This document shows positions 2 to 218 of a DNA stretch of 218 nucleotides, one piece after another. Each line of letters opens with the position of its first letter. The stretch's first letter is position 1. Made by a program: the position numbers and the translations under genes. The stretch is from a phage, in sequence record J02446.1. One strand, written 5' to 3'. Below the pieces are notes generated by a model. That model was not told the DNA's origin, made no database searches, and worked only from the letters and a program-made list of their open reading frames with translations.

Positions 2-103
2 GAAACCCTATCTTCCGCCAGGTTTAGGTGCAAACCTAACTCGGAATGGAGAACCCAGATCCCTCTATTTCCTCAGGAAGTAGAGGCCTGCGTTCTCTCC
101 TGA
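2..103 (+). CDS. C-terminal fragment (5'-truncated by the window edge) of the last ORF, most likely the replicase (RdRp) of a levivirus-like ssRNA phage; stop TGA 101-103 followed in frame by TAG 104-106
   Basis: Frame 2 is open from the window edge to 100 (ETLSSARFRCKPNSEWRTQIPLFPQEVEACVLS) and ends in tandem in-frame stops TGA-TAG. The stop sits inside a small hairpin (98-114) just upstream of the CCCC/GGGG and GGGUGGG elements, which is where I recall the MS2 replicase stop lying. Frame is ambiguous: frame 3 is open to TAG 81-83 and frame 1 has TGA at 1-3, so the ORF could end at either instead. 33 codons is too short for composition tests. Confidence 0.35.
   Translation, partial: ETLSSARFRCKPNSEWRTQIPLFPQEVEACVLS
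13..46 (+). other. Interrupted stem-loop (basal 5-bp helix, internal loop, apical 6-bp helix)
   Basis: 13-17 UUCCG pairs with 42-46 CGGAA, and 20-25 AGGUUU pairs with 32-37 AAACCU; apical loop 26-31 AGGUGC. Confidence 0.4.
62..86 (+). other. Stable 11-bp hairpin with one U-G wobble and a 3-nt loop, inside the putative coding tail
   Basis: 62-72 CCUCUAUUUCC pairs with 76-86 GGAAGUAGAGG; U68-G80 is a wobble that would be an A/C mismatch on the other strand. Loop 73-75 UCA. No downstream U-run. Confidence 0.55.
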
Positions 104-114
104 TAGTATCAGGA
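98..114 (+). other. Hairpin containing the candidate stop codons (UGA in the 5' arm, UAG in the loop)
   Basis: 98-103 UCCUGA pairs with 109-114 UCAGGA; loop 104-108 UAGUA. Confidence 0.4.
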
Positions 115-117
115 CCT

Positions 118-129
118 CCCCGGATGGGG
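118..129 (+). other. Short GC hairpin CCCC-GGAU-GGGG
   Basis: 118-121 CCCC pairs with 126-129 GGGG; 4-nt loop GGAU. It sits immediately 5' of the GGGUGGG tract, in the same order as a C-run/G-run hairpin I recall in the MS2 3' UTR. Alternative pairings of the G-run are possible. Confidence 0.35.
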
Positions 130-134
130 TGGGT

Positions 135-150
135 GGGACCGAAAGGTTCC
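135..150 (+). other. Hairpin with GNRA (GAAA) tetraloop
   Basis: 135-140 GGGACC pairs with 145-150 GGUUCC (6 bp, G137-U148 wobble); loop 141-144 GAAA. Its 5' arm is part of the GGGUGGGACC motif. Confidence 0.55.
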
Positions 151-153
151 TAT

Positions 154-168
154 GGAGGTGAATCCTCC
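154..168 (+). other. Hairpin GGAGG-UGAAU-CCUCC containing a Shine-Dalgarno-like GGAGGUGA
   Basis: 154-158 GGAGG pairs with 164-168 CCUCC. GGAGGUGA (154-161) is perfectly complementary to the 16S rRNA 3' end, but no ATG/GTG/TTG lies 4-12 nt downstream. Confidence 0.45.
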
Positions 169-183
169 CGCCCGTGAAGGCGG
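168..183 (+). other. GC-rich hairpin CCGCC-CGUGAA-GGCGG
   Basis: 168-172 CCGCC pairs with 179-183 GGCGG (5 bp, 6-nt loop). It shares C168 with the previous hairpin. Its position, penultimate to the terminal hairpin, parallels a short GC hairpin I recall in MS2 (CGGGA-UUC-UCCCG). Confidence 0.45.
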
Positions 184-188
184 TTTAA

Positions 189-211
189 TGACTAGTTTGC
201 TTGGCTAGTCA
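189..211 (+). promoter_or_regulatory. 3'-terminal hairpin (9 bp, loop UGCUU); candidate replicase recognition element next to the minus-strand start site
   Basis: 189-197 UGACUAGUU pairs with 203-211 GGCUAGUCA, including two U-G wobbles (196-204, 197-203). Loop is 198-202 UGCUU. The loop-plus-3'-arm sequence UGCUUGGCUAGU matches the recalled MS2 terminal hairpin. No U-tract follows, so it is not an intrinsic terminator. Confidence 0.6.
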
Positions 212-218
212 CCACCCA
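212..218 (+). promoter_or_regulatory. Single-stranded 3' tail CCACCCA (levivirus-type genome terminus; the final A is normally non-templated)
   Basis: The window ends exactly in CCACCCA, identical to the recalled MS2 3' tail. The tail is complementary to internal UGGGUGG at 130-136. Confidence 0.5.

Follow-up and report, generated by a model that had tools for sequence, protein, structure and literature searches.

We found that the segment UGGGU(GG) at positions 130-134(136) of the stretch of RNA phage sequence analyzed here (218 nt in length, the window in what follows) is, with a probability of about 0.82, the upstream strand of ld IX, a helix in which it pairs with the 3' tail (CC)ACCCA at 212/214-218 and closes a compact 3'-terminal domain. 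As an element, ld IX is already known, and the finding is real but ordinary. The sole new detail is a deletion in U1, the 3'-terminal hairpin, which in the strain of the window is predicted to permit a 7-bp form of the helix.

The window represents the 3'-terminal 218 nt of a coliphage of the F-specific RNA type, group II (Emesvirus japonicum), with 94.1% identity to BZ13 strain T72, 93.6% to KU1, 90-91% to BZ13 DL10 and DL20 and 89% to GA, and every match to the 3' ends of these relatives extends through the final base. The replicase coding sequences in the BZ13, KU1 and GA records end at what corresponds to window position 103, and the translation of 2-103 reads ETLSSARFRCKPNSEWRTQIPLFPQEVEACVLS, followed by the stop, with 31 of the 33 residues the same as in KU1. 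The true 3' UTR is 104-218, and the window is not wholly UTR. The TGA at 1-3 was considered as a stop codon and ruled out, being out of frame, with the stop lying at 101-103. A scan against Rfam with permissive E-values found no family near its gathering score; the top match reached 20.5 bits against a threshold of 66 and lay on the wrong strand. The elements that could be delineated in the window are collected in Table 1.

Table 1. Coding and structural features of the window, numbered from its first nucleotide
Feature	Position	Strand	Basis
C-terminal 33 codons of the replicase (RdRp beta subunit) and stop codon TGA at 101-103	2..103	+	CDS ends of relatives; translation
R1-type hairpin with the replicase stop codon, UCCUGAUA / UAUCAGGA	98..114	+	8-nt perfect inverted repeat
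Hairpin CCCC-GGAU-GGGG (118-121 with 126-129), directly 5' of the ld IX strand	118..129	+	folds
Probable ld IX upstream (5') strand; core UGGGU 130-134, strain-specific extension G135-G136	130..136	+	conservation, pair probabilities
GAAA-tetraloop hairpin GGGACC-GAAA-GGUUCC, abutting ld IX	135..150	+	covariation
Hairpin GGAGG-UGAAU-CCUCC within the 3' domain	154..168	+	in all folds
Hairpin CGCC-CGUGAA-GGCG within the 3' domain	169..182	+	folds, alignment
U1, 3'-terminal hairpin with conserved UGCUU loop motif	189..211	+	inverted repeat; pairing in relatives
3' tail CCACCCA; ACCCA 214-218 as conserved ld IX 3' strand	212..218	+	folds, pair probabilities, relatives

The hairpin with the stop codon is present in all folds and is invariant across group II, and the hairpin at 169-182 varies in both loop and stem within the group. 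The U1 loop (196-204) reads UUUGCUUGG and includes the UGCUU motif. The GAAA-loop hairpin that the first-pass annotation placed after the segment 131-140 is indeed present, with 135-140 pairing with 145-150 in a 6-bp stem that includes one G-U pair. G135 and G136 are common to the base of this hairpin and to the extension of ld IX.

In its passage on this interaction, the study of Rumnieks and Tars 2012 (PMC3561173), citing Beekwilder, Nieuwenhuizen and van Duin 1995, describes ld IX in all known Leviviridae. The domain that it closes has at least three hairpins, the last of which is U1 with a conserved (U)UGCUU loop (PMC3561173). The window resembles this description in that its 3' terminus pairs shortly past the replicase stop codon, with the upstream strand about 30 nt beyond it, and in that the enclosed hairpins end in U1. 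The domain sits at the extreme 3' end past the replicase ORF, its tail is complementary to the upstream strand and predicted to be paired with it, and more than the minimum of three hairpins are enclosed: four in the window, namely 135-150 (or 137-148), 154-168, 169-182 and U1 at 189-211, versus seven described for MS2. The same UGGGU/ACCCA pair is found in MS2, fr, GA and KU1 as in the window.

On the single sequence, positions 130-136 (TGGGTGG) are the exact reverse complement of the tail at 212-218 (CCACCCA). Whole-window shuffles give an expectation of 0.07 copies of TGGGTGG, and two copies occurred in 0 of 200 shuffles. A stricter shuffle, in which the G-rich upstream region alone was permuted with its dinucleotide content kept and the complement had to start from the terminus and span at least 7 nt, produced such a complement in 236 of 5000 cases (p ~0.05). 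Taken by itself, the tail match is thus borderline, and the main support comes from conservation in relatives. A second register is also present in the sequence: GGGUGG at 127-132 is complementary to CCACCC at 212-217, since GGGGUGGGUGG contains two overlapping copies. Its formation would disrupt the CCCC hairpin, and with a probability of ~0.001 it is negligible in the ensemble.

The module was aligned across 11 sequences: six from group II, MS2, fr, DL52 and two IMG/VR contigs with 46-48% replicase identity. UGGGU is invariant in 11/11 of these Emesvirus-like sequences, including the two contigs (L147 and L149), and a hairpin-UGGGU-hairpin arrangement is kept in MS2, fr, DL52, all the group II strains and the two distant metatranscriptome relatives. 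The MS2 3' UTR is laid out as CCCCGUAAACGGGG-UGGGU-GUGCUCGAAAGAGCAC. Both the arrangement that had been suggested for the MS2 3' UTR and the proposal that it represents a conserved module proved right. A search of IMG/VR for replicase relatives yielded 24 loci; all the metatranscriptome contigs stop short of the true 3' end, and from them only the upstream module was usable. Among them, the emesvirus-like contigs L146 (IMGVR_UViG_3300025757_000013), L147 (3300028088_000015) and L149 (3300022166_001538), all with 46-48% replicase identity and truncated 3' ends, keep the module with wholly different hairpin sequences.

Further searches for group II 3' ends in the metagenome and IMG/VR collections found no additional ones. 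A 25-mer from U1 had no match in the metagenome scan and a sole match, GA itself, in IMG/VR. A 21-mer from the module matched three metagenomic contigs of 5.5, 64 and 167 kb, which were judged to be chance matches from contig size alone. The pattern CCCC-N-GGGGTGGGTG gave at least 120 matches in IMG/VR, likewise put down to chance, none being similar by blastn to the window or the MS2 3' end.

The flanking hairpins show covariation. CCCCG/CGGGG becomes CAUCG/CGAUG or CCGCG/CGCGG in relatives, and GGGACC/GGUUCC becomes GUGACC/GGCCAC, GUGCUC/GAGCAC or CUGUUC/GAGCAG, with the pairs retained in each case; the equivalents of the 118-129 hairpin in MS2/fr, L147 and L149 have another sequence with compensatory changes. 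Across the two flanking hairpins eight pairs are changed on both sides, a count reached in 0 of 500 shuffles, and in the 135-150 hairpin four of the six pairs differ on both sides among relatives. The five ld IX pairs, on the other hand, never vary within Emesvirus, i.e., they show conservation without covariation, because the tail itself is fixed. Covariation across related 3' UTRs is thus seen in the hairpins and is absent from the ld IX core within the genus. Where the first-pass annotation asked for conservation of the full 130-136/212-218 complementarity, UGGGU/ACCCA is kept in the relatives and the outer two pairs are not. From the alignment, the conserved helix is one of 5 bp, UGGGU 130-134 with ACCCA 214-218.

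Invariance without covariation could also be read as the mark of a conserved single-stranded protein-binding motif, with S1, the replicase, IF3, the maturation protein or the coat protein as the ligand and the complementarity to the tail being incidental. Both IF3 and the maturation protein bind the MS2 3' region, and the single-sequence significance of just ~0.05 leaves room for a fortuitous match. Nevertheless, we regard such a motif as quite improbable: in other genera the upstream stretch matches each respective tail, the tail is paired in the Qβ virion model, and both neighboring helices abut UGGGU with no spacer, which is the geometry of a stacked junction.

Across genera, a change in the tail goes along with a matching change in the complement anchored on the terminus: the tail CCACCCA is accompanied by UGGGUG(G) in Emesvirus, CCUCCCA by UGGGAGG in the MX1/Qβ type, CCAACCA by UGGUUGG in C-1, CCCACCA by UGGUGG in Hgal1 and ACAUCCA by UGGAUG in PRR1. 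These partners were themselves chosen by complementarity to the tail, which renders the comparison partly circular and hence supportive rather than decisive; independent support for the pairing comes from published work. In shuffle tests of the tail complement, the window, MX1, PRR1 and C-1, which represent four independent lineages, gave p values of 0.02-0.05; those for Hgal1, SP, PP7 and M were not significant, and the values overall ranged from 0.02 to 0.8. In local folds of the window, MS2, fr, MX1, SP, NL95 and M, the tail is paired within the 3' UTR and the domain is closed.

In the window itself, the local folds pair the tail with 130/131-136, in agreement with the long-distance pairing between the internal element and the tail that had been suggested from the sequence and with the published ld IX (PMC3561173). 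Minimum-energy and ensemble folds give a probability of 0.97-0.98 for 131-134 with 214-217. Toward the hairpin the probabilities fall to 0.83 for 135-213 and 0.69 for 136-212, with 0.25 for the competing pair 136-149, and the end pair U130-A218 has a probability of 0.09. The form with 7 bp in ld IX and 4 bp in the GAAA hairpin has a predicted energy of -97.4 kcal/mol, with the 5+6 bp form at -96.5 and the tail-free form at -96.6 kcal/mol; another set of values for the variants is likewise close, at -97.4, -96.3 and -96.5 kcal/mol. The predicted cost of releasing the last five bases is 2.6-2.7 kcal/mol in the window strain versus 1.5-1.7 kcal/mol in other group II strains. With a predicted stability of 1.5-2.7 kcal/mol, ld IX would be only marginally stable, as would suit a helix that needs to be reopened.

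Folding on a larger scale gave a different picture. In the full-length minimum-energy folds of KU1 and MS2, ld IX was not recovered; instead the tail was partnered by the 5' GGU in KU1 and by 832-834 in MS2. Folds of 3.5-kb RNAs are known to be unreliable. We treat the absence of ld IX from these folds as a consequence of that unreliability, and have still counted it against the helix. When the UTR alone of MS2 and fr is folded, the tail favors a GGG right after the stop-codon hairpin; this GGG is absent in group II, which argues that UGGGU is the conserved partner. With the tail forced to be single-stranded in the window, GGGU 131-134 pairs with ACCU 114-117, lengthening the CCCC hairpin with U130 bulged. 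This alternative pairing shows no covariation and has no group I equivalent; in the model it represents a possible tail-free state.

The length of the helix is where the strain of the window departs from its relatives. In the folds of T72, KU1, DL10 and GA, a 5-bp ld IX, a 6-bp hairpin and an 11-bp U1 are combined with no unpaired junction nucleotides. In all other Emesvirus sequences, C212-C213 find their partners in a GG of the U1 5' strand. The window lacks this GG before UGACUAG at 185-190, as is apparent from GGCGGUUUAAGGUGACUAG in KU1 versus GGCGGUUUAAUGACUAG in the window, a 2-nt deletion. In terms of individual pairs, eight sequences have G-C at U1 pairs 44-71 and 45-70, and only in the window are these positions unpaired. 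U1 has thereby lost two basal G-C pairs and has 9 bp in the window strain versus 11 bp in the four other group II strains that were folded. The absence of the GG, seen in comparison with KU1 (L002), T72 (L001) and L003-L005, is either a real variant or a sequencing error. The deletion frees C212-C213, which can therefore take G136-G135 from the base of the hairpin. As a result, ld IX would extend from 5 to 7 bp and the GAAA hairpin would lose its two basal pairs.

In the relatives, these two positions belong to the hairpin. At 136:149, the window, T72 and KU1 have G-C where GA, DL10, DL20, MS2, fr and L147 have U-A, and at 135:150 L147 has C-G against G-C in eight sequences, a pattern of covariation that assigns G135 and G136 to the GAAA hairpin as judged from the alignment. 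Conversely, 136-212 is pairable in only three of the eight scorable Emesvirus sequences. Accordingly, the seven Watson-Crick pairs claimed for 130-136/212-218 stand as an exact complement that is also predicted to form, of which just five are conserved in relatives. The claim that this pairing excludes the base of the 135-150 hairpin holds insofar as the overlap is real, and is limited to 2 nt, G135 and G136.

It had also been suggested that this overlap could be a conformational switch. In such a switch, either G135-G136 or all of UGGGU would alternate between the tail and C149-C150 or ACCU 114-117, thereby toggling the 3' end between masked and exposed states. The conformers are indeed separated by only about 1-3 kcal/mol in the predictions, the pair probabilities are split (0.69 for 136-212 against 0.25 for 136-149), release of the tail costs 2.6 kcal/mol in the window and 1.5-1.7 kcal/mol in other group II strains, and the tail-free fold offers GGGU 131-134 a partner in ACCU 114-117. 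Energy gaps this small nevertheless fall within the error of the model. Moreover, the overlap with the hairpin amounts to just 2 nt and depends on G136, a base found in three of nine sequences; in two of the strains concerned, T72 and KU1, U1 holds C212-C213. Covariation places 135 and 136 in the hairpin, and the ACCU/GGGU alternative comes with neither covariation nor a group I equivalent. We therefore consider a switch possible but unlikely. A discrete switch as originally conceived finds no comparative support; what is predicted amounts to branch migration over 1-2 bp, made possible in the window strain by the 2-nt deletion in U1.

A second strand of the first-pass annotation concerned the likeness of the element to the start of the MS2 genome. 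Positions 131-140 read GGGTGGGACC, which is indeed identical to the first 10 nt of MS2, and of fr as well. On this basis the GGGU and the stable hairpin that follows might be kept as an internal copy of the genome 5' start, be it as a replicase recognition element, a local stand-in for the 5'-3' terminal helix or a relic of duplication or recombination. In favor of this reading, all 10 bases agree with the genome starts of MS2, fr and the DL20 record, and the two sites share a layout in which GGGU is directly followed by a hairpin; in addition, genuine Qβ replicase templates have been proposed to form a helix between their 5' and 3' termini, as cited in PMC6847885. Yet, the first six of these bases are dictated by the tail. 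In MS2 and fr, the 5' GGGUGG and the 3' CCACCC are complementary to each other, and hence a sequence able to pair with the tail necessarily shares six bases with the start of the genome. The complementarity between levivirus termini (5' GGG..., ...CCCA 3', on both strands) thus explains the GGGUGG reading of the tail partner, with the differences that the internal element is not a terminus and that its likeness past 6 nt is not conserved.

Beyond those six bases the resemblance is not conserved. Positions 136-140 vary among group II strains, and the additional GACC in the hairpin strand is variable among close relatives (GGGACC, GUGACC, GUGCUC, GCCGC and CUGUUC), with positions 7-10 of the likeness falling in a GUGACC context in GA, DL10 and DL20. 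The internal element of MS2 itself reads GGGUGUGCUC, and the two classic group II genomes start otherwise, KU1 with GGUUGGCGCC and GA with GGUGGUUAGG. As judged from these relatives, no conserved match to the 5' end of its own lineage beyond the bases imposed by the tail was found, the matches being confined to MS2, fr and the DL20 record. The loops are also unlike, GAAA in the element of the window versus UUUC at the 5' end, and the 10-mer recurs with two or fewer mismatches in 103 of 200 shuffles. We accordingly rate an internal 5'-start copy as most improbable; already weakened, it could be revived only by a 5' end of this strain reading GGGUGGGACC together with tracking of the 5' hairpin by 137-140. 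As an independent feature the internal copy was not upheld, with its first six bases following from tail complementarity and its GACC variable. The sequence comparisons point to the 5'-start resemblance being a by-product of complementarity between the genome ends, with no separate feature and no conservation beyond GGGUGG. The DL20 record (BZ13 DL20, FJ483839; L165 1-55) starts with GGGTGGGACC and is for ~55 nt identical to MS2, a group I phage, and unlike KU1 and GA. This 5' end looks suspicious and could be primer-derived, a chimera or a recombinant.

Several other features of the 3' region emerged alongside. The MS2 isolate DL52 (JQ966307; L006) has in its last 35 nt a U1 of the group II type (GGUGACUA...CUAGUCACC) despite its group I label, and its 3' UTR is much shorter than that of MS2; these sequence features suggest a mosaic 3' end in DL52. 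MS2, fr, GA and KU1 all have a complement of the U1 loop, CAAGCA(A), lying 1267-1364 nt from the 3' end, a spacing that is conserved, and its counterpart in MX1 and SP is AAAGCAG at 1214-1244 nt. The CAAGCA(A)/AAAGCAG sites listed are at 2211 in L007, 2212 in L010, 2199 in L008, 2220 in L009, 2972 in L011 and 3063 in L015. This complementarity would fit a Qβ-type long-range pseudoknot in the emesviruses, with the partner of the U1 loop lying outside the window. Within the window, GCAAAC at 30-35, in and beside a GCAA loop of the replicase coding part, is complementary to GUUUGC at 195-200 in the stem and loop of U1, and both are invariant in group II. The complementarity is probably incidental, given the better conserved partner ~1267 nt upstream.

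A close counterpart of the closed 3' domain is known from Qβ. In the virion model of this phage, its last six nucleotides are folded back onto 4124-4129, and the maturation protein binds the junction of the 3' UTR (PMC8880383). The likeness to the window lies in the CCCA initiation site, which is sequestered in a short helix closing the 3' UTR junction; the differences are that Qβ belongs to another genus, with the UGGGAGG/CCUCCCA pair of the MX1/Qβ type, and has a three-hairpin domain. The terminal A is not templated and the replicase initiates at the penultimate C (PMC4200798). Hfq facilitates access of the replicase to the Qβ 3' end, whereas for MS2 an Hfq-like role has been proposed for IF1, with IF3 competing for the 3' terminus (PMC8956599); the host chaperone is thus Hfq in Qβ and, as a proposal, IF1 in the emesviruses. 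In work on the MS2 replicase, no minus strand was obtained from engineered plus strands, and the authors weighed "a potentially inaccessible 3' end" (PMC6847885). The suggestion that the pairing masks the 3' end from the replicase, or presents it to it, is consistent with the reports on Qβ, in which Hfq aids access (PMC8956599).

In the folds of the window, a marginally stable helix joins the terminal ACCCA to a stacked junction of several helices. Extrapolating from Qβ and MS2, we propose that it is this closed junction that the maturation protein binds in the virion, and that the helix sequesters the CCCA initiation site, hiding the penultimate C. The helix would then have to open before minus-strand synthesis could start, with the help of Hfq in Qβ and possibly of S1 or IF1 in the emesviruses. 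A 2026 preprint reports that ISG20 and its bacterial homologues trim only single-stranded CCCA and are blocked by structured ends (PMC13344964). By our own inference, ld IX probably also shields the 3' end against 3'-5' exonucleases. The in-vitro substrates of that study were 3' UTR fragments without the UGGGU partner (PMC13344964), and such assays may overstate the exposure of CCCA in the full genome.

A more far-reaching reading, in which GGGU and its hairpin persist because they stand in for the 5' end in cis and, paired to the tail, locally supply the terminal helix proposed for genuine Qβ-type replicase templates between 5' GGG and 3' CCC, and the U1 deletion is an adaptive retuning, strikes us as highly doubtful. 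If it were true, the resulting 7-bp helix would hold the 3' end ~1 kcal/mol tighter, and dependence on the host chaperone or resistance to 3'-5' exonuclease defenses could change.

With ld IX as the preferred reading, the helix is one that decides the exposure of CCCA for minus-strand synthesis and shapes the 3' junction gripped by the maturation protein, and with it packaging and delivery. These roles are established for Qβ and MS2, and hence the group II case is a confirmation and not a discovery. What the group adds is variation between strains: the presence or absence of the GG in U1 and of G or U at 136 moves two base pairs among three adjoining helices, and these differences are natural variants for gauging how tightly the 3' end must be held.
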